A stretch of 64,000 nucleotides of DNA from Actinomycetota bacterium (GTDB lineage Bacteria > Actinomycetota > Acidimicrobiia > Acidimicrobiales > SZUA-35). The notes beneath the pieces are model-generated. The model saw only the letters and a list, made by a program, of their open reading frames with translations, searched no databases and had not been told where the DNA came from. How positions within the stretch are numbered: the stretch's first letter is position 1; each line of letters starts with the position of its first letter. Positions 14,634 to 48,674 of this stretch are shown piece by piece. The stretch spans positions 196,521-260,520 of the forward strand of contig JBCCFL010000002.1 in NCBI GenBank assembly GCA_039029735.1, written 5' to 3'. Position numbers and translations under genes: made by a program.

Positions 14634-15173
14634 ATGCGAAGCTTCGACCTGCGTCCACCCCAGATCTGCGTGCTCGGGAGTGCCGAGCCGGGATCGTCGG
14701 CGTACGAGCGTGCGGGCGACGCCGGGGCCTACCTGGCCGACATCGGCTTCACCGTCGTGAGTGGATGTGGGAGCGCTGCCACCCGCTACGCGGCGGAGCG
14801 GGCCATGGCGCAGGGCGGCCAGGTGGTGAGCATCATCCCGAGCGACGACATCAACATGGCCGACTGGCCGTGCACTGTGCTCATTCCGTGCGGCATGGGC
14901 GACGCCCGGAATCTGATGATGGCCCTCGCCGGCGACGCCTGTCTCGTGATCGGTGGTCGGGCGGGGACGAAGTCGGAGGTCTGCCTGGCGTGGCTTCACC
15001 ACCGCCCGCTGCTGCCGCTCACCGGCACCGGCGGATGGTCCGACACCCTCGCGGCCGACCCGCCGGACGAGCGAGAGAATGCCCCGATTCTGGAGTGGGC
15101 CACGGTCGACGCACTCGCTCGGAATCTCTGGGAGCTCGGTTTCCCGGTGCCGGCGGAAGCGCCGCCGGCCTAG
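14634..15173 (+). CDS. TIGR00725/LOG-like (SLOG superfamily) Rossmann-fold protein
   Basis: ICVLGSAEPGSSAYERAGDAGAYLADIGFTVVSG...VIGGRAGTKSEVCLAW follows the TIGR00725 layout. Confidence 0.55.
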   Translation: MRSFDLRPPQICVLGSAEPGSSAYERAGDAGAYLADIGFTVVSGCGSAATRYAAERAMAQGGQVVSIIPSDDINMADWPCTVLIPCGMGDARNLMMALAGDACLVIGGRAGTKSEVCLAWLHHRPLLPLTGTGGWSDTLAADPPDERENAPILEWATVDALARNLWELGFPVPAEAPPA

Positions 15174-16162
15174 CGGGCGAAGTTGGCGGCGATGCGCTGC
15201 GACAGGAAGTTGGCAGCGGTGATCGGAGCGAACCGATCAGTAGGGCTCGTGATTAGCGCGGGCTTGTTGGCCTGGGCGAAGAACGCCACGCTGTAGCGCG
15301 AGTCGGCGGCTTCGCCGGGCTGGGGCCCCCGCACCCGATGGAGCGTGGACCGCAACTGATCGTCGCTCCAGCGCATCAACATGTCGCCGATGTTGCACGT
15401 GATGAGGTGCTCGGCGGTATCGACGCTGGTCCACCGACCGCTGTGGGCATCCTCACCGGGGCAGACCTGGAGGCCCGACTGGCCATCGCGTTGGAAGAGC
15501 AGGGTCAGGCAGTCGTAATCGGTGTGGGCGCCGGCCCGCCACTGGCCGGCGGTGAAGTCGGTACCGGTCATCGGGAAGTAGTGCAGGAGCCGCAGCGTGC
15601 TCTGGTAGCCCTCGCCGGCCGGATCGTGGGCCCGGGTGAAGAACGCCCGGTCGAACCCGAGCCGGTCGGCGAAGCACGACAGCACGTCCATGGCGACCTT
15701 CCATGCCGCGGCCTCCATCGTTTCGAGCGCAGCGCGGAACCCCGGCAGCGACGCCTCCTCGGGCCACAGCCCGTCCATGTGCGGCGCGGTGAACTGGTAC
15801 GACTCCTTCTGGTCGACCACCTGCGTCGACGGACGCACCTGCCCCTTGGACTCCCACCCGGCGTTGAGTTCTCGGCGCCAGGGCACGGTTGCCTTCTCGT
15901 CGTCGGGGAGGGCGAAGAAGTGTTCGGCCGCAGTGAACGCATCGTCGATCACCGGGGCCGGGATGCCGTGGTCGGCGAGCTGAAAGAAGCCGACATCGGT
16001 CGACGCGGCCCACAGCGCGTCGGTGATCTCAGCTCGGCGTTCCTCGAAGCGTTCGACGCTGATCACAGGGATCGTGCGGTGATCGGTGTCGGTGCCGATC
16101 CCGCCGATCGTCGCCTCGAGCTCGAGTTCCCGCAGCGTGGGCTGGTCAGCGTCGAATCCCAT
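15170..16162 (-). CDS. 2OG-Fe(II) oxygenase (isopenicillin N synthase-like family)
   Basis: There is an N-terminal DIOX_N-like VGFFQLADHGIP. The HxD..H triad candidates are AHTDYD and LHRV. Confidence 0.8.
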   Translation of the reverse strand: MGFDADQPTLRELELEATIGGIGTDTDHRTIPVISVERFEERRAEITDALWAASTDVGFFQLADHGIPAPVIDDAFTAAEHFFALPDDEKATVPWRRELNAGWESKGQVRPSTQVVDQKESYQFTAPHMDGLWPEEASLPGFRAALETMEAAAWKVAMDVLSCFADRLGFDRAFFTRAHDPAGEGYQSTLRLLHYFPMTGTDFTAGQWRAGAHTDYDCLTLLFQRDGQSGLQVCPGEDAHSGRWTSVDTAEHLITCNIGDMLMRWSDDQLRSTLHRVRGPQPGEAADSRYSVAFFAQANKPALITSPTDRFAPITAANFLSQRIAANFAR

Positions 16163-16699: not shown

Positions 16700-17785
16700 C
16701 TAGAGCACGACGACCGAGCGCAGTACTTCGCCACGCTCCATCTTGTGGAAGGCCTCCTCCACGCCCTCGATGCCGATCGTCTCCGATACGAATCCGTCGA
16801 GGTTGAGGCGGCCCTGCAGGTAGAGATCGATGAGCATCGGGAAGTCACGGCTCGGCAAACAGTCGCCGTACCAGCTCGACTTGAGCGCACCACCGCGACC
16901 GAAGATCTCGATGAACGGCAGCTCCACCGTCATCTCGGGGTTCGGTACCCCCACCAGCACCACGGTGCCAGCCAGGTCGCGGGCGTAGAACGCCTGCTCG
17001 TAGGTCTTGGGGAGACCGACGGCCTCGATGGCCACGTCCACCCCGTTGCCGTCGGTGAGCTCGCGGATCTTCTCCACCGGATCCTCGATGGCGGAGTTGA
17101 CCATGTGGGTGGCACCGAAGTCCTTGGCCCACTCCAGCTTCTGATCGTCGATGTCCACGGCGATGATCGTTGATGCGCCGGCGAGCCGGGCTCCTTCCAG
17201 GGCGGCGTTGCCGACGCCTCCGCATCCGAACACGGCCACGGTGTCGCCTCGGCCAACGTTGCCGGTGTTCATGGCGGCACCGAGGCCCGCCATCACGCCG
17301 CAGCCCAGCAGGCCCGCAACCTCGGGCTTGGCCGCAGGATCGACCTTGGTGCACTGGCCGGCAGCCACCAGCGTCTTGTCACAGAAGGCGCCGATGCCCA
17401 GCGCGGGGCTCAGCTCGGTGCCGTCGGCCAGGGTCATCTTCTGGGTGGCGTTGTGGGTGGCAAAGCAGTACTGCGACTTGCCCTTGAGGCACGAGCGGCA
17501 TTGGCCGCACACGGCCCGCCAGTTCAGGATCACGTAGTCGCCGGGCGCCACTTCGGTGACGTCGGAGCCGACCGACTCCACCACGCCGGCTGCCTCGTGG
17601 CCCAGCAGGAATGGGAACTCGTCGTTGATGCCACCCTCGCGGTAGTGGAGGTCGGTGTGACACACCCCGCAGGCCTTGATCTCGACCACGGCCTCACCGG
17701 GGCCCGGATCAGGCACGATGATCGTCTCGACAGAGACGGGCTCTCCCTTGGCCTTGGCGATCACGCCTCGAACTTCCTGTGGCAT
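16700..17785 (-). CDS. S-(hydroxymethyl)mycothiol dehydrogenase / class III Zn alcohol dehydrogenase
   Basis: It has [25 protein letters not shown] and GCGGVGNAA over 361 codons from ATG 17785. Confidence 0.85.
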
Positions 17786-17891
17786 GGAACTCGTCCCCCT
17801 GGGGTCAACTTGCTGGTTGTCGGGCGATGCTAGCCGGGCTCGCGCTCGCCTTCCGTGGCGAGACCGTGTGGCTCCAGCCATACTCTGCGGC

Positions 17892-19010
17892 GTGATACGC
17901 ACCGGACGACATCGACGGCGACGCCTGGCACGCGTGGGATCCGGGCTTCTCGGTGCCGCTGCCCTGGTGCTCCTCGCCGTTGGATCAAGTGCCGCTCAGC
18001 CGGCAGACGTGGTGCCGGAGGTGCCCGCCGAGCGCCTCACCGTTGTGATGACCGAGCTCGAACCGTTCGTCGTCAACGACGACGGTGACGCCGACGGGTT
18101 CTACGCCGAGATCTGGGACGAGGTCGCTGGCTCCCTGGGCGTTGAGTACGACGTGGTGTGGGTCGACTCCTTCGGCGAGCTGTTGACCACGATCGACGTC
18201 GGTGGTGCCGAGGTGGCCGTGGCGCCTCTTGCGCCGACCGCGACCCGAGAAGCGAGCTACGACTTCTCGGCCGCAGTGATCGGCTCCGGCCCGCAGCTCG
18301 GATACCACGAGCGCAGCGCCGAGAACACGTCGCTACTTCGCGCCCTGTTCTCCCGCGAGGTGGGCTCGATCCTGTTGGTGGCCATGATCGGGCTCGTGGT
18401 CTTCGCCCACGTGATCTGGCTCGTCGAACGGCGGGATCCGGCCAACGAGGACTTCGAGTCGGCCTACTGGCCGGGTGTGTGGGACGGCTTCTGGTGGGCC
18501 GTGGTGACCGTGACCACCGTCGGCTATGGGGACAAGTCGCCCAAGTCCAATCGGGGCCGCTTGGTCGCCCTGGTCGGAATGCTGCTCAGCTTGTTCCTGG
18601 TCGGCGCGTTCGTGTCGCAGATCACGAGCATCCTCGAACTGCGCCGCGAGGTGCCGCCGGCGACGAGCCTCGACGACCTCGGCGGACGAACGGTTGGCGT
18701 GGTGGAGGGCACCACCTTCGCCGCCTACGTCGAGGGCGAGGGCGTGATCACGCAGCCCTATCCATCACAGCAGGCCCTGTTCGAAGGGGTGGCCGCTGGC
18801 GAGGTGGACATCATGGTGGCCAACCCGTTTGCGATTGACGCACTGGGGTCGCGATATGGCGTGCTCCCGACCGGCTCGGTGCTCTATCAGGAGTTCGAGA
18901 CGTTCGGGCTGGCGCAGGGCTCACCGTGGCGGGAGCCGATCAACCAGGCGCTGGCCGACCTCCATGCTGACGGCGAGGTCGAGGAGATCATCGACCGCTG
19001 GCTTCGCTAG
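17892..19010 (+). CDS. GluR0-like ligand-gated K+ channel (type 3 solute-binding domain interrupted by an M1-P-M2 pore)
   Basis: It starts with a signal peptide. An SBP lobe comes next, then TM, the pore helix with TVTTVGYGD and a second TM, then the second SBP lobe. The start GTG 17892 is my choice and is uncertain. Confidence 0.75.
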
Positions 19011-19707: not shown

Positions 19708-20346
19708 ATGAACGCGCATCTGATCCGGTTGCTGCCCCACGTGGCGGTGGTGGTGATCGCCGGCGCCTGTGTTGGCGGGGCGACTCTCGACGGCGAGACA
19801 GCTACCCCTGATCGCAGCGACACGAGTGCGTTGGCGGGCGAGGCGATCATTGTGGGAACCGACGGCCTGGAGCAGCTGCCGGCTCGCGACGGGCCACCGG
19901 AAGAAACGACCAATGCCGTGCCGCACGTGCAGACCAGCGCCGTGCTGGTGCCTGAGGTGTACGCCGACCTGCGACGGCGGGCGTATTCGATCCCCGGCAT
20001 CGAGGAACGCGAGTCGCTCCTGTCGCTCCCCGGTGCTCGAAGCCTCTGGTTGGGTGGCGATCTCGACCTCGCTCGACCAGAGGTGCTCCAGGCCGGCCGA
20101 GAGTTCGGACACATCCACCCCGACGGCAGTCTCCACCTCTGGCTGCCCGTGGATCGGGCCTTCGAAGTCGCCGAGAACGGGTGGGGCGAGTTCCACCCCT
20201 GGGTCGGTCGCGACGACTTCTGGGATGGGCTCGTGATGGTCTACACCCCTAAGTCGGCTGCTCAGGCCGACGTGACCATTCGCCTCATCGTGGATGCGTA
20301 CAACTACATCACCGGGGCCGAGATCGATCCGGGCACGATCACATGA
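19708..20346 (+). CDS. exported hypothetical protein with a luciferase-domain-like (PF17648-type) C-terminus
   Basis: It has an N-terminal signal or anchor, GGAAGGA upstream, and the motif REFGHIHPDGSLHLWLP...GLVMVYTP. The family assignment is from recall. Confidence 0.45.
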   Translation: MNAHLIRLLPHVAVVVIAGACVGGATLDGETATPDRSDTSALAGEAIIVGTDGLEQLPARDGPPEETTNAVPHVQTSAVLVPEVYADLRRRAYSIPGIEERESLLSLPGARSLWLGGDLDLARPEVLQAGREFGHIHPDGSLHLWLPVDRAFEVAENGWGEFHPWVGRDDFWDGLVMVYTPKSAAQADVTIRLIVDAYNYITGAEIDPGTIT

Positions 20347-21020
20347 GCGCCGGCTCGTCACTCGCTGCCCCACCGGTGGCCGAACTGCTCGGCCGGCTCC
20401 ATGCGGCGGCCGAGGCGCAGTGGCCCGACGTTGCACCGCACATGGCTCTGCTCGGCGAAGGCGCCGAGGGAACCGATCTGTGGCCGCACCACATGAGGGA
20501 CTTCTACCTGCCGGTGAGCCCGGCCCAGGGAGTGTTCCTCTATCAGACGGTGCGGGCGACCGGCGCCCGACGTGTGATCGAGTTCGGGTCATCGTTCGGC
20601 GTGTCGACGATCTATCTGGCGGCCGGGGTGCACGACAACGGAGGCGGCATCGTGGTTGGCTCCGAACTGGTCGCCACCAAGGCGGAGCAGGCAATGGCCA
20701 ACCTCACCGCCGCTGGACTGGCCGACGTGGCGGAGATCCGCGCCGGCGATGCCCGGGCAACACTGGCCGATCCCGGTGGCGTGGTGGACATGGTGTTGCT
20801 CGACGGAGGTCCGAGCCTCTACGTCGACGTTCTCGCCGGGCTTGTTCCGTGGCTCCGCCCGGGGGCCGTCGTCATTGCCGACAACGTGGAGGAGCCGACC
20901 GGCGACGGTCCGTCGTATGCCGGCTGGATCCGCAACGAGGCCAACGGCTTCGTCTCGTCGTCGGTGGCGTTCAAGGATGGCACCGAGTACTCGGTGTGGG
21001 TCGGGAGGAGCGACACATGA
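20343..21020 (+). CDS. class I SAM-dependent O-methyltransferase (CCoAOMT-like)
   Basis: It has VIEFGSSFGVSTIYLA, DMVLLDG and an ATGA overlap with the upstream gene. Confidence 0.7.
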   Translation: MSAGSSLAAPPVAELLGRLHAAAEAQWPDVAPHMALLGEGAEGTDLWPHHMRDFYLPVSPAQGVFLYQTVRATGARRVIEFGSSFGVSTIYLAAGVHDNGGGIVVGSELVATKAEQAMANLTAAGLADVAEIRAGDARATLADPGGVVDMVLLDGGPSLYVDVLAGLVPWLRPGAVVIADNVEEPTGDGPSYAGWIRNEANGFVSSSVAFKDGTEYSVWVGRSDT

Positions 21021-22396
21021 GATGGGTGACGATCGGCCTCGGCGTGTTGGCTGCCGCCGCAGTGGCCGGAGCAGCGGCCGTCGTGGTCGAGAACAGTCGG
21101 CTGCGCACCGGAGCATCCGTGGCCGAGTCGCGTTGGTTGGCGGCGGTGGCCATCAGCGGAGACCATTCGCCCTCCCAGAGCCGGCTGCTTGCGGTGGAGG
21201 CCGTGACCCGCAGCCCGACCGCGGAGTCCAGGGCGGCGCTCGGTCGGTTGTTGTACAGCGATCCCCGCACCCAGCCCCCAGTCACCGAACTCGGTCACGA
21301 TGGGCCGGTGTGGGCAACCGACGTGGCGACGACGGCCCCGTTCGTCGCGACCGGTTCGGACGATGGCGAGGTGCGTGTGTGGTCCAGCGCCGGGGAGCTG
21401 GGGTGGGCCGGCTCCACATCCGGCGAGATCCGCTCAGTCGACATCGCCGCCGACGACAGTCGGGTGGCAACCGGTTCCTTCGATGGCGATGTGGTGGTGT
21501 GGGGCCGCGATGGCGCGCAGCTCGCCGTGGTCGACCACGGCGCCGCGGTGAACGACGTTGCCCTCGGCGCCGACGGCACCCTCGTTCCCTCGGGAGGCGA
21601 CGATGGTCGGCTTCTTGTGATCGATGCCAGTGCCGACGTCGCCCGTATCAGGGCCGAGCTCTCACACCCCGACGCGGTGTGGACGGTTGCCCTTTCGGCC
21701 GACAGTGCCAGGGCCGCCACCGGCGGGCCCGACGGCGTGGCCCGGGTCTGGGAGCTCGGGTCCGGAACCGAGACCGCCACCTACGACATCGGGGAACCGG
21801 TGACTGTGGTGGCCTACGCCCCGTCGGGCGATTGGCTCTTCATCGGCGGGCAGCGAGGAGCGGCCGTCCTCGTCGACATCGCTGACGGTGGCGAGAGCGC
21901 ACCGTTGGAGGGAACCTTTCGCGGTGGCGTCGTCGACATCGACTGGCATCCCGACGGCAGCGAGGTGGCCGTGGTCTCGCTGGCGGGGGTGAATCGCTAC
22001 GAACTCGGCACGGCCGATCTCGTGGCCGAGCATCGTCTTGCCGGTGGAACCCGGGGCGTGGCCTACGGCCCCGCTGGCGACTGGCTCGTGTCCGGCTCGG
22101 GCGACTTCCAGTTCAGCTTCGGCGCCATCACGTTCTGGGACACCGCCGAGAACGTGGTGCTCGGAACCCTCAACCTGGGTGGCCCGGTGGAGACCATCGC
22201 CGTGGATGCGAGCGGTACGGTGCTCGCCGGGTTCCGAAGCACGGAGGATCTCGTGGAGACCGGTGGCGCGTGGTTGGTGCCTGGGCCGGGGGCCTGGCTC
22301 GATCTGGCGTGTGACGGTACCGACGGCGTGATCAGCGAGGAGACGTGGACCACGGTGACCGGCGAGACCGCCCCCCACACAACCGGCTGCGGCTAG
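21017..22396 (+). CDS. membrane-anchored WD40 beta-propeller protein
   Basis: There is an ATGA overlap at 21017-21020 and an N-terminal TM (VTIGLGVLAAAAVAGAAAVVV). The repeats are GSDDGEVRVWS, GSFDGDVVVWG, GGDDGRLLVID and GGPDGVARVWEL. Confidence 0.8.
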   Translation: MRWVTIGLGVLAAAAVAGAAAVVVENSRLRTGASVAESRWLAAVAISGDHSPSQSRLLAVEAVTRSPTAESRAALGRLLYSDPRTQPPVTELGHDGPVWATDVATTAPFVATGSDDGEVRVWSSAGELGWAGSTSGEIRSVDIAADDSRVATGSFDGDVVVWGRDGAQLAVVDHGAAVNDVALGADGTLVPSGGDDGRLLVIDASADVARIRAELSHPDAVWTVALSADSARAATGGPDGVARVWELGSGTETATYDIGEPVTVVAYAPSGDWLFIGGQRGAAVLVDIADGGESAPLEGTFRGGVVDIDWHPDGSEVAVVSLAGVNRYELGTADLVAEHRLAGGTRGVAYGPAGDWLVSGSGDFQFSFGAITFWDTAENVVLGTLNLGGPVETIAVDASGTVLAGFRSTEDLVETGGAWLVPGPGAWLDLACDGTDGVISEETWTTVTGETAPHTTGCG

Positions 22397-24324
22397 ACCA
22401 GGCTGGCGTCGGCCACGATGTCGACCAGGGCCGGACCGTCGTGGCCCAGGGCCGAGGCGAGGGCGGCGTCGAGCTGATCGGCCCGCTCCACACGGAAGCC
22501 CCGAGCGCCGCAGTTCTCGGCGAAGGCCGCGAAGTCAGGGTTCACCAGCGAGGTCTGCCACACGTCGAGATCGGCTGAGCGCTGCTCCTTCGAGATCTTG
22601 CCGAGCTCCCCGTTGTTCACGAGTACGTGGGTGACGTTCATGCCGTACTTCACGGCGGTGGTCACCTCCATCGCGTACTGCCCGAAGCCGCCGTCGCCCG
22701 ACACACCAACGACCTGGCGGCCGGTGTTCGCCGCCCACGCTCCCATCGCGGCCGGGAAGCCGAACCCGATGGAGCCGAGGTAGCCGGACATGAGCACAGT
22801 GTGGCGATCCACCTCGAAGTAACGCCCGAAGCTGTACGTGTTGTTGCCGACGTCGACGGCCATGATCGCATCAGGATCGACGGCAGTGCCGAGGGCGGCG
22901 AACACACGGGCGGAGTTGAGGCCGTGGCCCCGATCATCACCAAGGCGGGACGCCTTCTCGGCTCGCCAGATGGCCCACCGTTCAGCCACCTCGGACCGGA
23001 GGTCGGGCCGCTCGCTGTCCTCCAGCACGGCGTCGTGCAGCACGGTGGCGGTGGTGCCGACATGGCCGAGCACGGGCACCGTCACCGGATGGAATCGACC
23101 GAGCGCCATCGGATCGTGGTCGACCTGGATGATCGGTTTGTAGGGAGCGACGCCGGTGTGGTTCGAGAACGACACGCCGAACGCAAGGATCAGATCGCTC
23201 TCGTTCATGAACCAGCTGGCGATCGGCGTTCCACTGCGACCCAGCACCCCGCAGCCCAGCCGATGATGGTCACTGATCTGGCCCTTGGCCTTGAACGTCG
23301 TGGCAACGGGCGCATTGAGGTGCTCGGCGAGCGCCGTGATGGCCGCCATGTCGTGGCGGGCGCCAGCTCCAACGAGGATGAGGGGATGTGCCGAGTCGCG
23401 AATGAGGCGCACCGCGTCGTCCACGGCATCGGGCGGCGGAAGGATCGTGCGGAGCCCGGTCCGCCCGGCTGGGCTCGCCGCTTCGGCGTCGCTCGGTTGC
23501 ACCTGCACCTCGTCGGGCACCACGAGGTGGGCGACGTCGGCCTCCACCAGCGCCGTCTTGCACGCAAGCGTCATCAGCTCGGCGTGGTTGGAGCCACTGA
23601 GCACGGTCTGGCTGTACCGGGCCACGTCGGCGAAGGCGGCGGAGAGATCGAGATCCTGGAATGCGCCACGACCCATGGTGGCTGAGGGCACCTGGCCAGA
23701 GATCGCAAGCACCGGGGCGCGATCGATCTTGGCGTCGTAGAGCCCAGTGAGGAGGTTGGTCGATCCTGGGCCGGCGATACCAAAACAGGCGGCGGGCCGG
23801 CCGGTGAGCTTGCCGTAGGCCGAGGCGGCGAAGGCAGCTGCGCCCTCGTGACGAACACCGATGTAGGACAAGTGGCCGGCCGCCTCGGCTTCGCGCATCG
23901 CATCACCGAGGCCGAGGTTGGAGTGGCCGACGATTCCGAACACGGTGTTGACGCCCCACGAGGTCATGGTTCCGATCATCACGTCGGACACGGTTCGGGG
24001 CCGCGGCTCCTCGTCCGGCAGCGAGGCGTAGATCCCGTCGTCGCGTACCTCCACGTGGTAGCAGGGTGGGGCGTCGGTGAATGGCGGTGGGGGAGTGCCG
24101 GTGGTGGGGTTGTAGTCGTAGCCGTGCCAGGGGCAGCGCAGGTGGCCACCTTCGATGGAGCCCTCACCAAGCGGGCCACCCTGGTGCGGACAGTGATTGT
24201 CGAGGCAGCCGTACTGGCCGTTGTGATGGGTGACCGCCAGCGTGTGATGGCCGATCGTGACGGTGGTGACGCGGCCCTCCGGCAACTCTCCGTGATTCAG
24301 GATCTTGTGGAAGGTGTTGCGCAT
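22393..24324 (-). CDS. Rieske [2Fe-2S] domain fused to a TPP-dependent enzyme (pyruvate oxidase/acetolactate synthase-like), paralog 1
   Basis: The Rieske motif is CPHQGGPLGEGSIEGGHLRCPWH, the TPP_N motif is GIAGPGSTNL, and the TPP motif is GDGGFGQYAME..NNGELG. It spans 643 codons from ATG 24324 with GGGGGAG upstream. Confidence 0.85.
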   Translation of the reverse strand: MRNTFHKILNHGELPEGRVTTVTIGHHTLAVTHHNGQYGCLDNHCPHQGGPLGEGSIEGGHLRCPWHGYDYNPTTGTPPPPFTDAPPCYHVEVRDDGIYASLPDEEPRPRTVSDVMIGTMTSWGVNTVFGIVGHSNLGLGDAMREAEAAGHLSYIGVRHEGAAAFAASAYGKLTGRPAACFGIAGPGSTNLLTGLYDAKIDRAPVLAISGQVPSATMGRGAFQDLDLSAAFADVARYSQTVLSGSNHAELMTLACKTALVEADVAHLVVPDEVQVQPSDAEAASPAGRTGLRTILPPPDAVDDAVRLIRDSAHPLILVGAGARHDMAAITALAEHLNAPVATTFKAKGQISDHHRLGCGVLGRSGTPIASWFMNESDLILAFGVSFSNHTGVAPYKPIIQVDHDPMALGRFHPVTVPVLGHVGTTATVLHDAVLEDSERPDLRSEVAERWAIWRAEKASRLGDDRGHGLNSARVFAALGTAVDPDAIMAVDVGNNTYSFGRYFEVDRHTVLMSGYLGSIGFGFPAAMGAWAANTGRQVVGVSGDGGFGQYAMEVTTAVKYGMNVTHVLVNNGELGKISKEQRSADLDVWQTSLVNPDFAAFAENCGARGFRVERADQLDAALASALGHDGPALVDIVADASLV

Positions 24325-24524
24325 CAGGTGGCTCCCCCGTGGGTGATGCCGAGGAGGTGGTGCCCCCGTCAACGTCGATCGGCCTACCGGCTCGGTCGCG
24401 CGGCTGCCGCTTCAGCGACCAGCTTGGAATGAGCCCTGCGCCCCGTCGTGGTAGAAGCACGACGTTTCGAGGTCGAAACACGACAGATTGCGCCGGCCCC
24501 GGCTGAGGGGCCCCGACCCCGGCT

Positions 24525-36021: not shown

Positions 36022-37608
36022 ATGCGGGCCAACGATGATCAGCGCGCCGGCGGCTACGTGCTGCCGGCCACGGCGCTGCTCGTCGTGCCGCTCCTGGTGT
36101 TCGCGGCGCTTGCCGTGGACGTCGGCGGCTGGACCGTGGAGGCGAACCGCACGCAGGCGGCGGCCGATGCGGCGGCGCTCGCCGGTGCCCCCCTGCTGCC
36201 TGATCAGACCAAGGCCACCCAGGCGGCCCAGTACGTGGCGGCCCAGAACGGCTTCGTCGACGGGGCCGACGGCACCACCGTGGCGGTCGAGTTCCCCGGC
36301 AATCAGTCGATCCGGGTGGTGATCACCGTCGAGTCGGATCTGTACTACTCCGGGATCGTGATGGAGAACCCGGTCACGATCGGTCGCTTCGCCGAGGCCG
36401 AGGCCCTGTCGCCCATCGGGCTGAGCTCACCGACGAACGTGCTCGGCTTCGGCCCCTACTCGCTCGACGGCTCGCCGGTTGCCAACTACTGGATCCTGGA
36501 GAACAACGAATGCCAGGTCGGCCACTACGGCGACATCAAGGCCGCCCGCTACCTGTCGTCGCCCTGGTGTGGGGTTGGTCTCGGGCTGCCCGAGAATCCC
36601 GAGTTCAAAGGGCGCACCGATGGCCGCGACGGTGGCTACATGTATGTGGTCAAGATCCCGGCCGGTTTGACCGTCGGATCGAGGCTCTACATCTTCGATC
36701 CCGGCAAGTGCCCGGGCTATGGCTCGAAGCCCTCCGACGGGAGCTGGAACCGTCCCGACGGCCAGGGAACCAACCTCGAGTTCCGCCAGTGGAGCACCAA
36801 CGACTCGCCGCTGGTGCCAACCGACGACTTCCCGGTCACGGGCTGGATCCGCTACGACGACTGCGCCGAGGACCTGCCATACCCCGCCGCGTCGTGGACC
36901 GACCAGACCGACGGGTGGACCTCCACCGCCTTCACGTTCCCACCCAATACGTCAGGCGAGACCGAGTACCACCTCATCCAGACCCGAACCCTGCCGGCCA
37001 CCCGGTCGGGCTGGAACCACTACGCCTTTTGGGTGCGCCCCGACGATGGCACCACGTCATGCCTCACGATCGGGTCGACCACGTGTCCGTCCGTTGGAGC
37101 GGAGACCTGGGCCCCCACCCAGGCGCGGGGCGAGGTGGCCGGGGTGCCGATGGAGCTGTTCCTGGCCGAGGTCGGTCCTGAGCACGCCGGCCGGGTGATG
37201 ACGGTGCGGCTGTGGGATCCGGGTGAGGGCATGAACAACATCCAGGTGATCGACCCGCTCGACCGCTCGCTCGACTTCACCTGGACCTCCGACGACACCC
37301 TCAACTACGCCGGCACCAACCCGTCGGACACGTGCTCGGGCAACCCCTGCCTGTACCTGGATCCCACGTTCAGCGGATATCCGGCCAAGCTCAGCAATCC
37401 CGGGTGGGGAAACCACTGGCGGTTCAACGGCCGGGTGGTCAACCTGAACGTGCCCCTCGACAGTCAGGTCGACTTTCCCGCCTACGCCACCAGTCCCAAC
37501 GGATTCTGGTTCCGTATCCGCTTCGAGCCCACGCCCACCAACGCCGCGCGCGAGTGGGCGTCGTTCGGCGTCAGCATCGGCGGCGACCCGATCCGGCTCA
37601 CGGACTGA
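36022..37608 (+). CDS. TadG-like (Tad/PF13400-type N-terminus) pseudopilin with a large Cys-containing C-terminal domain
   Basis: GGYVLPATALLVVPLLVFAALAVDVGGWTVEANRTQAAADAAALAGA is the TadG-type N-terminal module. I recognise no vWA motif. Confidence 0.65.
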   Translation: MRANDDQRAGGYVLPATALLVVPLLVFAALAVDVGGWTVEANRTQAAADAAALAGAPLLPDQTKATQAAQYVAAQNGFVDGADGTTVAVEFPGNQSIRVVITVESDLYYSGIVMENPVTIGRFAEAEALSPIGLSSPTNVLGFGPYSLDGSPVANYWILENNECQVGHYGDIKAARYLSSPWCGVGLGLPENPEFKGRTDGRDGGYMYVVKIPAGLTVGSRLYIFDPGKCPGYGSKPSDGSWNRPDGQGTNLEFRQWSTNDSPLVPTDDFPVTGWIRYDDCAEDLPYPAASWTDQTDGWTSTAFTFPPNTSGETEYHLIQTRTLPATRSGWNHYAFWVRPDDGTTSCLTIGSTTCPSVGAETWAPTQARGEVAGVPMELFLAEVGPEHAGRVMTVRLWDPGEGMNNIQVIDPLDRSLDFTWTSDDTLNYAGTNPSDTCSGNPCLYLDPTFSGYPAKLSNPGWGNHWRFNGRVVNLNVPLDSQVDFPAYATSPNGFWFRIRFEPTPTNAAREWASFGVSIGGDPIRLTD

Positions 37609-37615
37609 CGTCGCC

Positions 37616-38281
37616 GTGTTCTTCGCGTTCCTCGTTCTCCGGCACCGCCGACTCGTTGCCTCCGAACGCGGCACGTCGTTGGTGACCTACTCCCTGGTGT
37701 TGGCCTTGGTCACCGTGTCGTCGCTGGGAGCTGTCGACGCGCTCCTTGCCTCGTCGAGCTCGCTGCTCGAGGACAGCGGCGACGACATAGGCACGCCCCG
37801 CTCGTACCGCAACGACGCGGTCCTCGAGGCGAACGCGCCACCGGCATGGGCGTCCACCACGTTGCCGCCGACGCTCGTGACGTTCGTCGAGAAGCCGATC
37901 CAAACGGCGGGAGGTTGCCTGGCGGTGAGTGGCACCACGATCGGTCAGGTGCCCTGTGGTGACCCGGCCGAGACGCTCTTCTCCGGGCTCAGCGAGGACG
38001 CCACCCTCATCACACTCAGCACGGCCGATGCCACCGTGTGCGTGCACGGCGACCCGGCTGGGGTACCCGACACGGTCACGATGATCCCGTGCACTGGCTT
38101 GCTTCCCGAATGGGAGCAGATCGCCGCTGAAGGCGTGGCCGTGATGTATCGCCACCAGGCGTCGGGCCTCTGCCTCACCGGCGTGGCCACCGGCGCACCG
38201 GTACCGCCACCAGCAGCCCTCGTACTCGCCACCTGCGACGAATCCCCGCAACAGGTCATGACCCTGGTGTACGGCGGATGA
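37616..38281 (+). CDS. Flp-type pilin N-terminus fused to a putative ricin-B-like beta-trefoil domain
   Basis: ..RLVASERG|TSLVTYSLVLALVTVSSLGAV aligns to the Flp at 33424-33609. The C-terminal ~130 aa has three Cys-pair subrepeats. Confidence 0.6.
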   Translation: MFFAFLVLRHRRLVASERGTSLVTYSLVLALVTVSSLGAVDALLASSSSLLEDSGDDIGTPRSYRNDAVLEANAPPAWASTTLPPTLVTFVEKPIQTAGGCLAVSGTTIGQVPCGDPAETLFSGLSEDATLITLSTADATVCVHGDPAGVPDTVTMIPCTGLLPEWEQIAAEGVAVMYRHQASGLCLTGVATGAPVPPPAALVLATCDESPQQVMTLVYGG

Positions 38282-38886
38282 GCCGGGCGAGGGGGCACCG
38301 CCGGAGTGAACGTGGTGCGAGCATGATCGAGACGGCTCTCGTCACCCCGATCTTCCTCGCCTTGGTGTTGATGATCATGGAGGTGGGATTCCGACTCCGC
38401 AACGACATCATCGCCGCCAACGCGTCGGCCGCTGCGATGCGGGCCCTCACCGTTGCCGGCAGTAGCCCCGAAGCCGACTACCTCGCGCTGCGAAGCCTGG
38501 AGCACGGCCTCTCGACGATCTCGCTCGAGGACGTGGAGCGGGTGGTGGTGTATCGGGCGTCCGGGCCCGGCGATCAGGTGCCGGCTGCCTGCCTGTCGGT
38601 GCCGATTCCAACCGGGCTCGACTGCAACGGGTACACCGCTCCCGACTTCTACCTCGCATACGCCAACGCCGTCGGCACGCCAACTGGTCACTGGGGTTGT
38701 GGCGTGACCGCCCGTGACGACCGTTGGTGCCCGACCACGCGCCAGTCGTCACTCTCCGACCCGGGTGGCCCCGATCACATCGGGATCTATGTGCGGCTGA
38801 GCCGAGGCACGCTCACCGGCGCCATCGGCGGGGCGCAGATCATCGAGGTCGACCGCATCGCCCGCATCGAACCGCAGAGCAACTGA
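38278..38886 (+). CDS. TadE-like pseudopilin
   Basis: The N-terminus is HRRSERG|ASMIETALVTPIFLALVLMIMEVG. There is an ATGA overlap with the upstream gene. Confidence 0.75.
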   Translation: MSRARGHRRSERGASMIETALVTPIFLALVLMIMEVGFRLRNDIIAANASAAAMRALTVAGSSPEADYLALRSLEHGLSTISLEDVERVVVYRASGPGDQVPAACLSVPIPTGLDCNGYTAPDFYLAYANAVGTPTGHWGCGVTARDDRWCPTTRQSSLSDPGGPDHIGIYVRLSRGTLTGAIGGAQIIEVDRIARIEPQSN

Positions 38887-39482
38887 TGGCGCCACCGCCG
38901 ACCATCGGAGCGCCGCGGGGTGCATGTACCGCCACGCGTCACGAGCGAGGGGCCGCGATCCTCGAACTCGCCTTCGTGTTCGTGCCGTTGATCCTGATCG
39001 CCGTGATCACAGTGGAGCTCGGGCTGATGTGGAAACAGCAGCTCGACGTCGACCAGTCGGCTCGGGCCGGCGCTCGGGCGGCGGCGGCGTTGACCAACGA
39101 CCCCGAGGCCGACCGTGAAGCACTGCGGTCCCTCGTGGGGTCGTTGTCGCCGGAGGCGCTGGCCAATGTCGATGCCGTGGTGATCTACCAGGCCCCGGCC
39201 TCGGGGGACATGCCCGGAATCTGCGCCATCTCCAGCACCTCGATGTGCAATCGGTACCCGGCATCAGTGCTGGCTGACCTCGACGACGACAGTCGTTGGG
39301 GGTGCGGGGGCGCGGCGCATGACCGGTTCTGGTGCCCCACCGCCCGTGACCCGCAGCTCCACGCGCCGGTCGAGGCCGGAGTTCGCATCGAGTTCCGGCA
39401 CGACTGGCGCCTCGGCATGTTCCCTGACGGCGTCGACCTGTCGGCGACGACAGTCATGCGCCTCGATCCGCTGATCCGCTGA
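38886..39482 (+). CDS. TadE-like pseudopilin (paralog)
   Basis: The N-terminus is TRHERG|AAILELAFVFVPLILIAVITVELG. There is a TGATG overlap with the upstream gene. Confidence 0.75.
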   Translation: MAPPPTIGAPRGACTATRHERGAAILELAFVFVPLILIAVITVELGLMWKQQLDVDQSARAGARAAAALTNDPEADREALRSLVGSLSPEALANVDAVVIYQAPASGDMPGICAISSTSMCNRYPASVLADLDDDSRWGCGGAAHDRFWCPTARDPQLHAPVEAGVRIEFRHDWRLGMFPDGVDLSATTVMRLDPLIR

Positions 39483-39549: not shown

Positions 39550-41481
39550 ATGACCTCCTGGCACAAGGTGCTCACCCCCGACGAGCTGCCCGAGGGCCGC
39601 GTCACCACGGTCACGATCGGCCGTCGCTCACTGGCTCTCACCCACTACGACGGCCGTTACGGCGCGCTCGACAACCGTTGCCCCCACCAGGGTGGTCCGC
39701 TCGGGGAGGGCTCCATCGAGAAGGGCTGGCTCCGGTGCCCCTGGCACGGGTACGACTACTCGCCCCACGACGGCCAGCCGCCGGCCGGCTTCTCCGATGC
39801 GCCGCCATGTTTCGCAGTCGAGGTTCGCGACGACGGTGTGTACGTGGAGCTGCCACCCGAGCCCGCGCAACCACGAACCGTCTCGGACGTGATGGTGGAG
39901 ACCATGATCAACTGGGGGGTCGACACCGTGTTCGGCATGGTGGGCCATTCCAACCTCGGTTTCGCCGACGCCATGCGCAAAGCCGAGGGTCGCGGTGACC
40001 TCCGCTACATCGGGATCCGCCACGAGGGTGCCGCTGCGTTCGCCGCCAGCGCCTACGGCAAGCTCACCGGCCGTCTTGCCGGCTGCTTCGGCATCGCGGG
40101 CCCGGGTTCGACCAATCTGCTCACGGGGCTCTACGACGCCAAGGTGGACCGCGCCCCCGTGCTCGCTCTGTCGGGCCAGGTGCCGTCGAAGGTCATCGGC
40201 CGGGGTGCCTTCCAGGACCTCGACCTCACCGGTGCGTTCGCCGACGTGGCCCGCTACTCCGAGACCATCCATTCCGGTTCCAACCACGCCGAACTGATGA
40301 CGCTCGCCTGCAAGACGGCGATCATCGAGCGCGATGTTGCCCACCTCGTGTTCCCCGACGAGGTGCAGGAGATCGCCTCCGACGCTGCTGCTGGTGGTCC
40401 GGTCGGCCGCACCGGCAACCGGGGGATCGCGCCGCCGGCCGAGGTGCTGGCCGCAGCCGCTGATCGCCTCGCCGCCGCCGAACGGCCACTGGTGATCGTG
40501 GGGGCCGGAGCCCGCCACGAGATGCCGGCCGTGCTGGCCCTGGCCGAGCAGATCGGAGCGCCGATCGCCACCACGTTCAAGGGCAAGGGGCTCGTGTCGG
40601 ATCGTCACCCGCTCGGCTGCGGTGTGCTCGGGCGTAGTGGCACCCCGATCGCCAGCTGGTTCATGAACGAGAGCGATCTGATCGTCACCTTCGGGGCGTC
40701 GTTCGCCAACCACACCGGCATTGCCGAGTACAAGCCGATCATTCAGATCGACGACGATCCGATGGCGCTCGGCCGCTTCCATTCGGTCGAGATCCCCGTT
40801 CAGGCGAACATCGCGGTGGCCGCCGCTGCGTTGGCCGACGCGGTGGCCGGACGTGCCACATGCATCGATCACCGGCCCGAAGTGGCCGAGCGGTGGGAGA
40901 TCTGGCGGGCGGAGAAGGCGTCTCGTCTGGCCGATGATCACGGCAAGGGCCTTGGTGCCGCCGCCCTGTTCGACTCGCTCACCCGGGTGTGTCCCGAGGA
41001 TGCCGTGCTGTGTGTGGACGTCGGCAACAACACCTACAGCTTCGGTCGATACTTCGAGGCCACCAATCAAGACGTGCTCATGTCGGGCTACCTCGGCTCG
41101 ATCGGCTTCGGCTTCCCTGCTGCGATGGGGGCGTGGGCCGCTGTTGGTGGCAGTCGCCCAGTGGTCAGTGTGTCGGGCGACGGTGGGTTCGGTCAGTACG
41201 CCATGGAGATCACCACTGCGGTGAAGTACGGGATGAACATCACCCACGTACTTATGAACAACGGCGAGTTGGGCAAGATCTCCAAGGAGCAGCGGAGCGC
41301 CGAGTTCGATGTGTGGCAGACGAGCCTGCACAACCCGTCGTTCGCGGCGTTCGCCGAGTTGAGCGGCGCACTCGGGATCCGAGTCACCGATGCATCGGAA
41401 CTCGACGAGGCGCTTGCCCGCGCCCTCGCCCATGACGGCCCTGCGCTCGTCGAGGTGATGACCGACGCCGCTCTCGTCTGA
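39550..41481 (+). CDS. Rieske [2Fe-2S] domain fused to a TPP-dependent enzyme, paralog 2
   Basis: It has CPHQGGPLGEGSIEKGWLRCPWH and GDGGFGQYAME..NNGELG. It has 643 codons and is colinear with paralog 1. Confidence 0.85.
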   Translation: MTSWHKVLTPDELPEGRVTTVTIGRRSLALTHYDGRYGALDNRCPHQGGPLGEGSIEKGWLRCPWHGYDYSPHDGQPPAGFSDAPPCFAVEVRDDGVYVELPPEPAQPRTVSDVMVETMINWGVDTVFGMVGHSNLGFADAMRKAEGRGDLRYIGIRHEGAAAFAASAYGKLTGRLAGCFGIAGPGSTNLLTGLYDAKVDRAPVLALSGQVPSKVIGRGAFQDLDLTGAFADVARYSETIHSGSNHAELMTLACKTAIIERDVAHLVFPDEVQEIASDAAAGGPVGRTGNRGIAPPAEVLAAAADRLAAAERPLVIVGAGARHEMPAVLALAEQIGAPIATTFKGKGLVSDRHPLGCGVLGRSGTPIASWFMNESDLIVTFGASFANHTGIAEYKPIIQIDDDPMALGRFHSVEIPVQANIAVAAAALADAVAGRATCIDHRPEVAERWEIWRAEKASRLADDHGKGLGAAALFDSLTRVCPEDAVLCVDVGNNTYSFGRYFEATNQDVLMSGYLGSIGFGFPAAMGAWAAVGGSRPVVSVSGDGGFGQYAMEITTAVKYGMNITHVLMNNGELGKISKEQRSAEFDVWQTSLHNPSFAAFAELSGALGIRVTDASELDEALARALAHDGPALVEVMTDAALV

Positions 41482-46830: not shown

Positions 46831-46928
46831 ACCCGTTGCTGATCACGCCAATGCCTTGTCGCCGCACCAACCCGCCCGTCACCAACCGCGATCCCTACCA
46901 CCGATCACCCCACCAGGAGCAACACGCC

Positions 46929-48674
46929 ATGCCGCTCGAACCAGGCACCCGACTCAACGGAGGCCAGGCCCTCATGCAGAGCCTGGAGATGGAAGGCGTG
47001 GAGGTGATCTTCGGCTACCCGGGTGGGGCGATTCTCCCCGTGTACGACCCGCTCATCGACTCGCAGATCCGCCATGTGCTCGTGCGCCACGAGCAGGGCG
47101 CCGGCCACGCCGCCGAGGGCTACGCCCACGCCACGGGCAAGCCCGGCGTGTGCATGGTGACCAGCGGGCCGGCCGCCACCAACGTGGTGACGCCCTTGGC
47201 CGATGCGTACCTCGACTCTGTTCCCATGGTCTGCATCACTGGTCAGGTGGCGATGGCCGCAATCGGCACCGACGCCTTCCAGGAGTGTGACACCACCGGG
47301 ATCACCCGGTCGGTCACGAAGCACAACATGCTCGTGACCGACGCCGCCGACATTCCCCAGGCCATCAAGGAGGCGTTCCACATCGCCACCACCGGTCGGC
47401 CCGGGCCCGTGCTGGTGGACATCCCCAAGAACATCGTCGACGCCAACAATCCCGACGCCTACTTCGACTGGTCGTACCCCGAGACGGTGGACCTCCCCGG
47501 CTACAAACCGGCTCCTGGCCCCGACCCGGCCGCGATCGCCGAGGCGGTGGCCATGATGCGGGCAGCCGAACGCCCCGTGCTCTATGTGGGCGGCGGCGTG
47601 CTCAAGGCTCGTGGCGCCGAGGCGCTGCGCCGGCTCGCGGAGATCGGGAACATCCCGGTCGTCACCACGCTCATGGCCCGGGGCGCCTTCCCCGACAGCC
47701 ACGAGCTCTGCCTCGGCATGCCTGGCATGCACGGCAACTACACCGCAGTCACAGCCATGCAGCAGAGCGATCTGCTGATCGCCATGGGCAGCCGCTTCGA
47801 CGATCGCGTGACCGGCAAGGTTGGCGCCTTCGCCCCCGACGCCAAGATCGTCCACGTTGACATCGACCCTGCTGAGCACGGCAAGGTCCGCCGGCCCGAC
47901 GTGTCGGTGGTGGGCGACTGTCGTCTCGCCATGGAGGCGATGCTGGCCGAGCTCGAGAGCGCTGGCGGCAGCTCGGCGTTCGCGTCACACAGTGCCTGGC
48001 GTCAGCAGCTGTCCGGCTGGCAGGAGAAGTATCCCCTCACCTACGAACAGTCGGCTCCCGGTGAGTACGTCAAGCCGCAGTATGTGCTGGAGCGCCTGCG
48101 CGACCTGTCGCCGAGCGACACGATCGTGGCCTCGGGTGTTGGCCAGCACCAGATGTGGACCAGCCAGTACTGGCAGTTCGATCACCCCTACACCTGGATC
48201 AACTCCGGGGGGCTGGGCACGATGGGCTTCTCCATTCCGGCCGCCATCGGGGCCAAGGCCGGCATGCCCGACCGGATGGTGTGGGCCGTGGACGGCGACG
48301 GCTGTTTCCAGATGACGGCCCAGGAATTGATCACCGCAACGGTGGAGCGCATCCCAATCAAGGTTGCGCTGCTGAACAACGCCTACCTCGGCATGGTGCG
48401 ACAGTGGCAGGAGCTGTTCTACGAGGAGCGCTACTCCGAGGTGTACCTCAGCCACGACATGCCCAACTACGTGCAGTGGGCGCAGTCGATGGGATGCGAG
48501 GCCTTCCGGGTGGAGGAGCCAGAAGAGGTCGACGCCACGATCGCGAAGGCCAACGAGATAAACGACCGACCCGTGGTTGTGGAGTTCCGCTGCATCAGCT
48601 CGGAGAAGGTCTACCCGATGGTCCCCGCCGGCGGCTCCAACGACGACATCCTCGTCGACCCGTCACAGCGCTGA
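46929..48674 (+). CDS. ilvB: acetolactate synthase large subunit
   Basis: It has GYPGGAILPVYD, TSGPAATN and GLGTMGFSIPAAIGAK. It is followed by ilvN and ilvC. AGGAG is upstream of ATG 46929. Confidence 0.92.
   Translation: MPLEPGTRLNGGQALMQSLEMEGVEVIFGYPGGAILPVYDPLIDSQIRHVLVRHEQGAGHAAEGYAHATGKPGVCMVTSGPAATNVVTPLADAYLDSVPMVCITGQVAMAAIGTDAFQECDTTGITRSVTKHNMLVTDAADIPQAIKEAFHIATTGRPGPVLVDIPKNIVDANNPDAYFDWSYPETVDLPGYKPAPGPDPAAIAEAVAMMRAAERPVLYVGGGVLKARGAEALRRLAEIGNIPVVTTLMARGAFPDSHELCLGMPGMHGNYTAVTAMQQSDLLIAMGSRFDDRVTGKVGAFAPDAKIVHVDIDPAEHGKVRRPDVSVVGDCRLAMEAMLAELESAGGSSAFASHSAWRQQLSGWQEKYPLTYEQSAPGEYVKPQYVLERLRDLSPSDTIVASGVGQHQMWTSQYWQFDHPYTWINSGGLGTMGFSIPAAIGAKAGMPDRMVWAVDGDGCFQMTAQELITATVERIPIKVALLNNAYLGMVRQWQELFYEERYSEVYLSHDMPNYVQWAQSMGCEAFRVEEPEEVDATIAKANEINDRPVVVEFRCISSEKVYPMVPAGGSNDDILVDPSQR

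Follow-up and report, generated by a model that had tools for sequence, protein, structure and literature searches.

Pyruvate oxidases that depend on thiamine diphosphate (ThDP) and on flavin adenine dinucleotide (FAD) have two known electron outlets, O2 in POX and membrane quinone in PoxB and pyruvate:quinone oxidoreductase (PQO). In PoxB and PQO an amphipathic C-terminal tail, which carries the membrane anchor of PoxB, serves membrane binding and quinone reduction. The Rieske ferredoxins of oxygenase systems take their electrons from an FAD reductase and pass them to a terminal enzyme. The subject of this work is a gene at positions 22393..24324 (minus strand) of a 64,000-nucleotide stretch of contig JBCCFL010000002.1 from an Actinomycetota bacterium (assembly GCA_039029735.1), hereafter called the window. 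Its product joins an N-terminal Rieske [2Fe-2S] domain to an enzyme body of the three-domain ThDP type (a Rieske-TPP fusion; TPP, thiamine pyrophosphate). We refer to this gene as copy 1; a paralog, copy 2, lies in the same window. On balance, we lean towards reading the product of copy 1 as a soluble, ThDP-dependent and probably FAD-containing oxidative 2-oxo-acid decarboxylase of the POX lineage, in which the fused Rieske [2Fe-2S] cluster would be the electron outlet.

The coding sequence of copy 1 (643 amino acids plus stop), as defined by the open reading frame (ORF) listing, Pfam and an identical database protein, lies in an open frame that runs without interruption over 22393..24372 on the minus strand. 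The database protein (P0001, 100% identity) is named 'thiamine pyrophosphate-dependent enzyme [Actinomycetota bacterium]'. A Shine-Dalgarno-like GGGGGAG at 24332..24338 (minus strand, direct reading) stands 7 nt ahead of the ATG at 24324, and alignments to homologs begin at residue 1-5; this ATG is therefore taken as the right start. Pfam recognised four domains in this single frame, namely Rieske (PF00355, residues 7-76, E 4e-16), TPP_enzyme_N (PF02776, 111-228, 3e-34), TPP_enzyme_M (PF00205, 301-427, 4e-30) and TPP_enzyme_C (PF02775, 491-636, 2e-35). The latter three follow each other in the order PYR, middle, PP of the three-domain ThDP superfamily of POX and acetolactate synthase (ALS), the DC family (PYR-TH3-PP), and the uninterrupted fusion described in the sequence-only reading is thus borne out, as are the motifs it quoted (CPH-x16-CPWH, GIAGPGSTNL, GDGGFGQYAME and NNGELG), all of which were located in copy 1. 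The AlphaFold2 model was confident (mean predicted local distance difference test score, pLDDT, 85; predicted template modelling score, pTM, 0.85), and Foldseek related it to many members of the superfamily with a probability of 1.00. The only stretches of low confidence (213-224, 387-392 and 576-592) all coincide with conserved motifs. The pTM value only hints at a defined docking of the Rieske domain.

With regard to the enzyme body, the nearest characterised enzymes are of the POX type by both sequence and fold, in agreement with the sequence-only reading. Among PDB sequences, the body matched POX (SpxB, EC 1.2.3.3) of L. plantarum best (LpPOX, 1POX/1Y9D; 2e-66, ~28% identity), followed by the ThDP/FAD oxidative decarboxylases PoxB of E. 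coli (EcPoxB, 3EY9/3EYA; 3e-64) and PQO of C. glutamicum (CgPQO, 9EV3-6; 3e-56), and A. viridans POX was also among the closest. POX, PoxB and PQO likewise led the Foldseek comparison with the PDB (1Y9D, 3EYA, 9EV6), in which the best target-normalised TM-scores, 0.81-0.85, were those to the C-terminally truncated, activated forms of PoxB (3EYA) and PQO (9EV6). Only about 540 of the 643 columns of copy 1 align in these matches, from which it follows that none of the entries combines Rieske and TPP parts; no solved structure with both was found in the PDB by sequence or Foldseek searches. The best NCBIfam match was pyruvate oxidase (NF006377), with 387 bits against a cut-off of 742, and both a further pyruvate oxidase model (TIGR02720; 320 bits, cut-off 638) and the curated PoxB/PQO model (305 bits, cut-off 792) scored lower. 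Copy 1 reached no equivalog or curated family cut-off in NCBIfam.

The catalytic and ThDP motifs of the body are strongly conserved, as judged by counts over 83 family sequences and by a separate comparison across 30 clusters. The PYR domain (23641..23994, minus strand; Pfam and conservation) contains the catalytic Glu160, present in 83/83 sequences, the motif GIAGPGSTNL (182-191), an essentially invariant F222-Q223 and a family-specific V132-G-H134-S-N136. In the PP domain (22417..22854, minus strand; Pfam, LpPOX alignment and conservation), the ThDP/Mg motif GDGG...NN is conserved as G543-D544-G545...N570-N571 (GDGGFGQYAME, 543-553; NNGELG, 570-575), with the spacing GDG-X(24-27)-NN typical of the superfamily, and is followed by an essentially invariant K576-I-S-K579-E580-Q581, Lys576 being found in 81/83 sequences. 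When the family was aligned jointly with three references (LpPOX, EcPoxB and the ilvB of the window), R363, F222-Q223 and E580 aligned with R264, F121-Q122 and E483 of LpPOX, so that copy 1 has kept the catalytic Glu, the F-Q pair, the Arg264 and Glu483 equivalents and the GDG..NN motif of POX. Pyruvate as the substrate is suggested only by the conservation of these equivalents of R264, F121/Q122 and E483.

The middle domain (23044..23424, minus strand) is of the FAD/nucleotide type according to Pfam, a PDB search with the domain alone and the conservation of its motifs, of which G319-x-G321, T342-T-F-K, G359-V-L-G-R363-S-G and G383-x-S-F-x-N-H-T-G391 are essentially invariant. Searched alone, it matched FAD binders most strongly, with acetohydroxyacid synthase (AHAS) at 1e-11 and LpPOX at 3e-9, and then, at about 1e-7, cyclohexanedione hydrolase (CDH), PQO and A. 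viridans POX. The ADP-binding middle domain of oxalyl-CoA decarboxylase (OXC) also scored (1e-7). Non-flavin members gave weaker matches (pyruvate decarboxylase, PDC, 1e-5; catabolic ALS, AlsS, 6e-4). Used as an indirect proxy, this ranking suggests that the flavin site has been retained.

Copy 1 differs from the described oxidases in several respects. POX has no Fe-S domain and delivers its electrons to O2. C-terminal tails beyond the PP core amount to 59 residues in LpPOX and 32-48 in PoxB-like proteins (43 in PoxB), whereas the Rieske-TPP family ends 0-3 residues past the core (3 in copy 1). The middle-domain 'FPYR' of PoxB and PQO is replaced by 'SFSNHTG'. The position of LpPOX Phe479 and EcPoxB Phe465, which we take to lie between ThDP and FAD, is occupied by Lys576 in the family and by Met in AHAS. 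Of the 188 positions that are invariant in the body, 64 have a residue that none of the three references shows there, among them V132-G-H134-S-N136, H389, Q549-Y550 (immediately after GDGGFG), K576, K579 and W589.

The N-terminal module (residues 1-103; 24016..24324, minus strand), delimited by PF00355, PDB alignments and the AlphaFold2 model, is beta-rich in the model, with pLDDT values of 78-96 per 10-residue block. Its [2Fe-2S] ligand boxes, C45-P-H47 and C64-P-W-H67, are separated by 16 residues (24124..24192, minus strand, direct reading). The ligands were found in 83/83 (C45), 82/83 (H47), 81/83 (C64) and 82/83 (H67) sequences and were also invariant across the 30 clusters. The sequence-only reading considered the module NirD-like in size. 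The nearest solved relatives are instead Rieske ferredoxins of oxygenase systems: searched alone, the module aligned end to end with CarAc (4.7e-9) and T4moC (3e-8), followed by the naphthalene-dioxygenase ferredoxin, BphF and TodB. In size and ligand pattern it equals CarAc, T4moC, BphF and TodB. It also has the features of a Rieske-type ferredoxin, that is, C-x-H...C-x-x-H in a beta-sandwich of ~100-110 residues. As judged from these comparisons, the module is a shuttle-type ferredoxin and not a NirD-like subunit. High-potential Rieske proteins of bc1 and b6f complexes possess additional cysteines that form a disulfide. Such cysteines are absent from the boxes of copy 1, as they are from CarAc, T4moC, BphF and TodB, which only suggests that the cluster is of the low-potential ferredoxin/oxygenase type. 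Unlike these free-standing ferredoxins, which are fed by NAD(P)H-dependent reductases, the module is covalently fused to a ThDP enzyme, and it was never free-standing in any full-length family member. A short Pro/Glu-rich linker (residues 104-112; 23989..24015, minus strand), supported by column counts and the unbroken frame, connects it to the PYR domain; its sequence is variable except for the terminal R110-T111-V112, which is conserved.

The most informative comparison is that with relatives carrying other modules. In an exhaustive HMMER scan over 1.84 billion representatives at 50% identity, the Rieske-fused family was represented by about three full-length proteins (67, 55 and 53% identity). 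The next-nearest full-length relatives were mostly fused to rubredoxin (PF00301) at the same N-terminal site, ~20 residues ahead of TPP_enzyme_N, as in P0247 (48%), P0251 (41%), P0258 (40%) and P0264 (39%); P0257 (41%) is a bare enzyme with no N-terminal carrier. A query with the rubredoxin form retrieved ~70 clusters of rubredoxin-fused proteins, of which some comprise hundreds of sequences, and then matched Rieske-fused proteins at 49-53% identity over the body only. The sources named for the rubredoxin-fused proteins were Dehalococcoidia, Methanomicrobiales, Desulfobacteraceae and Opitutales. In a neighbour-joining tree the Rieske clade was sister to the P0247/P0251 pair and stood apart from the POX and PoxB branches. 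H134, N136, Q549, Y550, K576 and W589 are common to the Rieske clade and this pair and absent from POX, PoxB and AHAS, and all members of the Rieske/rubredoxin clade lack the C-terminal tail of POX and PoxB (32-59 residues). The rubredoxin-fused proteins (the P0247, P0258, P0264 and P0457 clades) thus resemble copy 1 in their sister bodies (40-53% identity), short C-terminus and carrier site, and differ in a carrier with one Fe and four Cys in place of the Rieske cluster. Moreover, the 873-residue P0242 (L087:7001-9622) has a Fer4_19 domain, two CDGSH [2Fe-2S] domains and a Rieske domain ahead of its TPP body. Since non-homologous one-electron carriers occupy the same site of one enzyme lineage, these module swaps argue strongly that the N-terminal appendage serves as an electron-transfer module.

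Some further observations concern these relatives. The layout of P0242 would be that of a multi-cluster wire, and cytochrome oxidase genes lie 5 kb from its gene. Further rubredoxin-fused entries are P0457 and those of loci L088-L093. In L093 a free 45-residue rubredoxin gene is located 113 nt upstream of the rubredoxin-fused relative, and in L088 and L089 the rubredoxin-fused gene is followed by one for an AhpC/TSA peroxiredoxin. Among distant relatives, P0271, P0293, P0294, P0300, P0304, P0356, P0383 and P0385 (~1000-1190 residues) contain two matched TPP-enzyme stretches, as in tandem double ThDP enzymes, and the catalytic Glu is missing from the aligned unit in many of them.

The fusion was called unusual in the sequence-only reading. 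It is indeed uncharacterised, but among marine and sediment bacteria it is a common architecture. In a search covering 5.8 billion proteins, the four Pfam domains of copy 1 recurred in every one of more than 120 clusters retrieved at 68-100% identity, several of them on contigs of 3-6 Mb. Scanning a single genome for each species gave full-length matches, Rieske part included, in at least 594 species-representative genomes from more than eight phyla. Among the matches listed, carriers were mostly Acidimicrobiia, the others being Acidobacteriota, Gemmatimonadota, Planctomycetota, Trueperaceae, Myxococcales, Poribacteria and Gammaproteobacteria; one carrier is the cultured cyanobacterium Leptothoe kymatousa (TAU-MAC 1615). 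Other searches added members from Marinimicrobia, Alphaproteobacteria and Polyangiales. P0185, a fragment of 132 residues that shares 60% identity with the Rieske module, carries the database name 'pyruvate oxidase, partial [Halorubrum distributum]'; it may be an archaeal member or contamination. Database names are generic ('thiamine pyrophosphate-binding protein', 'Rieske 2Fe-2S domain-containing protein', 'pyruvate oxidase'), and full-text literature searches found no description of Rieske- or rubredoxin-ThDP fusions or of the Rieske-glutamate synthase fusion considered below. In line with the sequence-only reading, no characterised enzyme with this architecture was found, be it in a paper, in a curated NCBIfam model scoring above its cut-off or in a PDB structure.

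It could be argued that a separate Rieske gene was joined to a TPP gene by a sequencing or assembly error, or that the fusion is a functionless accident of one lineage, as some database entries do contain separate short Rieske ORFs. The short 'Rieske-only' proteins matched by the N-terminal query are fragments. In L085:3595-5945 and L086:4001-5947, which come from long-read assemblies of metagenomes, frameshifts divide the fusion gene into three ORFs. The Rieske-only ORFs on these long contigs adjoin TPP genes that are themselves in two or three pieces, and the separation is therefore attributed to frameshift errors. We had considered natural split Rieske and TPP pairs as 'Rosetta stone' evidence for a functional link, and rejected them because the long-contig cases are frameshifted genes. 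Such assemblies yield spurious 'stand-alone Rieske' proteins in the databases. In copy 1 itself the frame is unbroken, the junction R110-T-V-S113 is conserved, and the fusion occurs twice in the window in addition to the many species genomes listed above. The possibility of a frameshift or misassembly, raised in the sequence-only reading, is thereby already refuted; we consider the chance of an artefact practically nil.

To examine the genomic context, ORFs of 82 related loci and the window were clustered all against all, and the gene calls at positions -1 and +1, based on the GC content of third codon positions (GC3), were scanned in batch with Pfam. Only one neighbour recurred, a ~540-residue protein consisting of an N-terminal Rieske domain and the flavin mononucleotide (FMN) domain of glutamate synthase (PF01645, E 4e-91). 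Alignment to 7MFM showed that it retains the motif C-x5-C-x4-C, which binds a [3Fe-4S] cluster in glutamate synthase (GltS). Its gene lies directly upstream in 21 of ~65 loci with enough flank (L003:8394-10004, L002:8394-10004, L094:4340-5974 and 18 other loci); two of these pairs are divergent and 19 co-directional, and in the latter the stop and start codons often overlap. The pair was found in Actinomycetota, Acidobacteriota and Myxococcota (including one Myxococcales genome). It is also present in Acidobacteria bacterium Mor1, whose genome is complete (CP011806.1), and in fragmented form in L085. This GltS-like protein, a second uncharacterised fusion, is a probable partner of Rieske-TPP. 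Neither an ilvN-type regulatory subunit nor a Rieske oxygenase was found adjoining the Rieske-TPP genes. A conserved downstream gene ('cluster 6', 17 loci) was discarded, as it had no Pfam match and was unsupported by the GC3-based calls; it probably consists of shadow ORFs. A glyoxalase/VOC neighbour, considered from an ORF upstream in the window and from L087, was also set aside, as it did not recur in the -1/+1 Pfam scans and the window ORF had no Pfam match.

In the mechanism that we propose, a small 2-oxo acid, most likely pyruvate, would add to ThDP and be decarboxylated. The resulting hydroxyalkyl-ThDP enamine would pass two electrons to the flavin of the middle domain, the flavin would be re-oxidised by the N-terminal Rieske cluster in two one-electron steps, and the cluster would transfer the electrons to another protein as the acceptor. 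In about one third of the genomes this acceptor could plausibly be the co-transcribed Rieske-[3Fe-4S]-FMN glutamate-synthase-like reductase. Compared with a multicomponent oxygenase system, the enzyme body would thus stand in for the 'FAD reductase' and the module for the 'Rieske ferredoxin', with the 2-oxo acid replacing NADH. In thermodynamic terms, the pyruvate couple can readily reduce a Rieske ferredoxin of about -150 mV. Occupancy by FAD, the route and direction of electron flow and the identities of substrate, acceptor and product (acetate or acetyl-phosphate) are what we infer for copy 1. The built-in one-electron relay with a different electron outlet, as envisaged in the sequence-only reading, has gained strong indirect support from the carrier swap, the lost PoxB tail and the Rieske-fused flavoenzyme that recurs as a neighbour, while its FAD binding, substrate and acceptor stay at the level of prediction.

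Several points weigh against this proposal. Two thirds of the loci, including both copies in the window, have no conserved redox partner nearby. The Lys at the Phe479/Phe465 position may mean that the flavin route differs or is absent. Furthermore, the neighbour-joining tree carries no support values, and P0242 is a single sequence from one contig.

The missing partner at most loci would also be expected if the protein were a non-redox ThDP carboligase or lyase, similar to ALS/AHAS, glyoxylate carboligase or Xsc, in which any flavin has a structural role and the Rieske domain senses redox state or oxygen, or else serves regulation or oligomerisation. The scores of AHAS and catabolic ALS are only ~10 orders of magnitude worse than that of POX, plant AHAS is the best match of the middle domain alone, position 576 differs from the Phe of POX and PoxB, and N190 is AHAS-like ('GPGSTN'). 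However, hallmarks of AHAS are missing, as copy 1 has GVSFSNHTG in place of G-x-RFDDR and KEQ in place of QWQ, and the NCBIfam AHAS/ALS models remain far under their cut-offs (287 bits against 538 for TIGR00118; 264 bits against 510-551 for AlsS). No ilvN-type subunit adjoins the gene, and ilvB lies within 10 kb of it in only 3 of the 82 loci. Sensing also explains poorly why three or four unrelated carriers (Rieske, rubredoxin, CDGSH and Fer4_19) should have been fused independently, and the cluster ligands are invariant over more than eight phyla. A carboligase or lyase therefore appears unlikely to us.

The same Lys576 bears on another reading, which keeps the Rieske outlet and dispenses with a redox-active flavin. 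Here the middle domain would be empty or of the ADP type, as in OXC, and the Rieske cluster would oxidise hydroxyalkyl-ThDP directly in one-electron steps via a ThDP radical, tuned by Lys576 and His134, much as in pyruvate:ferredoxin oxidoreductase (PFOR). PFOR is an established precedent for transfer from ThDP to Fe-S clusters, and, like the proposed enzyme, PFOR and the 2-oxo-acid:ferredoxin oxidoreductases (OFOR) in outline couple ThDP-dependent 2-oxo-acid oxidation to electron exit through protein-bound Fe-S clusters. Their domain organisation is unrelated, with homology limited to the ThDP-binding folds, and they use [4Fe-4S] clusters and CoA, contain no flavin and are usually oxygen-sensitive. 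The direct route would be consistent with an invariant Lys in place of the POX/PoxB Phe between ThDP and FAD, with the clade-specific H134, Q549 and Y550 adjoining catalytic motifs in sequence, and with the match of the middle domain to the ADP-binding domain of OXC (1e-7). On the other hand, G-x-G and the other middle-domain motifs are strictly conserved in a domain that is nearest to FAD binders, and the ~10-residue linker at the N-terminus of PYR may keep the cluster away from the buried ThDP C2. We consider this route quite improbable, and retain the flavin-mediated decarboxylase as the preferred reading.

Copy 2 (39550..41481, plus strand), missing from the sequence-only reading, was identified by tblastn, ORF translation and a motif table; it encodes 643 residues and is 71% identical to copy 1. 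As 79 of the 82 related loci are closer to copy 2, and as its surroundings (Amidohydro_3 ... Na/H exchanger ... ilvBNC) mirror locus L001, copy 2 is regarded as the mainstream ortholog and copy 1 as the more diverged paralog. The canonical ilvB (46836..48674, plus strand; tblastn and alignment table) lacks a Rieske module, as had been noted from the sequence, and it is only this separate gene that is adjoined by ilvN/ilvC-type genes. A functional link to ilvBNC, which lies near copy 2 and in L001, was rejected as lineage synteny in view of the three loci mentioned above.

The neighbours of copy 1 are a convergent WD40 gene, an unassigned ORF, and DUF5655 or NUDIX (overlapping ORFs). The WD40 beta-propeller gene (21050..22396, plus strand) converges on copy 1 with a 4-nt overlap of the stop codons, from which it follows that copy 1 ends its transcription unit. 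Within a few kb of copy 1 there are genes for a 2OG-Fe(II) oxygenase, a small luciferase-domain protein and an O-methyltransferase (15170..16162, minus strand, and 19708..21020, plus strand); no link of the fusion gene to such genes was seen in the other loci. At 17676..19010 (plus strand), a single ORF joins a periplasmic solute-binding domain (SBP_bac_3) to an ion-channel pore (Ion_trans_2/Lig_chan); it is a prokaryotic GluR0-like ligand-gated channel. Copy 2 has Tad pilus genes, a zinc-type dehydrogenase and DUF72 as neighbours, the TadE/TadG-like Flp-pilus assembly genes (36022..39482, plus strand) being directly upstream. The Rieske-glutamate synthase gene is absent from the 64-kb window, and neither fusion copy has such a neighbour.

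If the proposal is true, a large multi-phylum clade with interchangeable Fe or Fe-S carriers and no membrane tail would add a third electron outlet to the ThDP/FAD pyruvate oxidases, namely a protein-bound one-electron relay. A bolder version, which we regard as doubtful, is that the Rieske- and rubredoxin-fused POX-like clade might constitute a third, hitherto unrecognised pyruvate-oxidising class (pyruvate or 2-oxo-acid:iron-sulfur-protein oxidoreductase on a POX scaffold, a functional analogue of PFOR); together with the Rieske-[3Fe-4S]-FMN GltS-like partner it could then form a couple independent of pyridine nucleotides that drives GltS-type reduction, e.g. glutamate formation, by Rieske-to-Rieske transfer. 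The Mor1 genome, with both genes side by side, makes the partner hypothesis directly testable. In biocatalysis, the fusion may also serve as a compact scaffold with which pyruvate could reduce Rieske or rubredoxin partner enzymes. In abundant groups of marine and sediment bacteria such as Acidimicrobiia, Acidobacteriota and sponge symbionts, the proposed enzyme, if confirmed, would connect the oxidation of 2-oxo acids with electron economies of the ferredoxin type.

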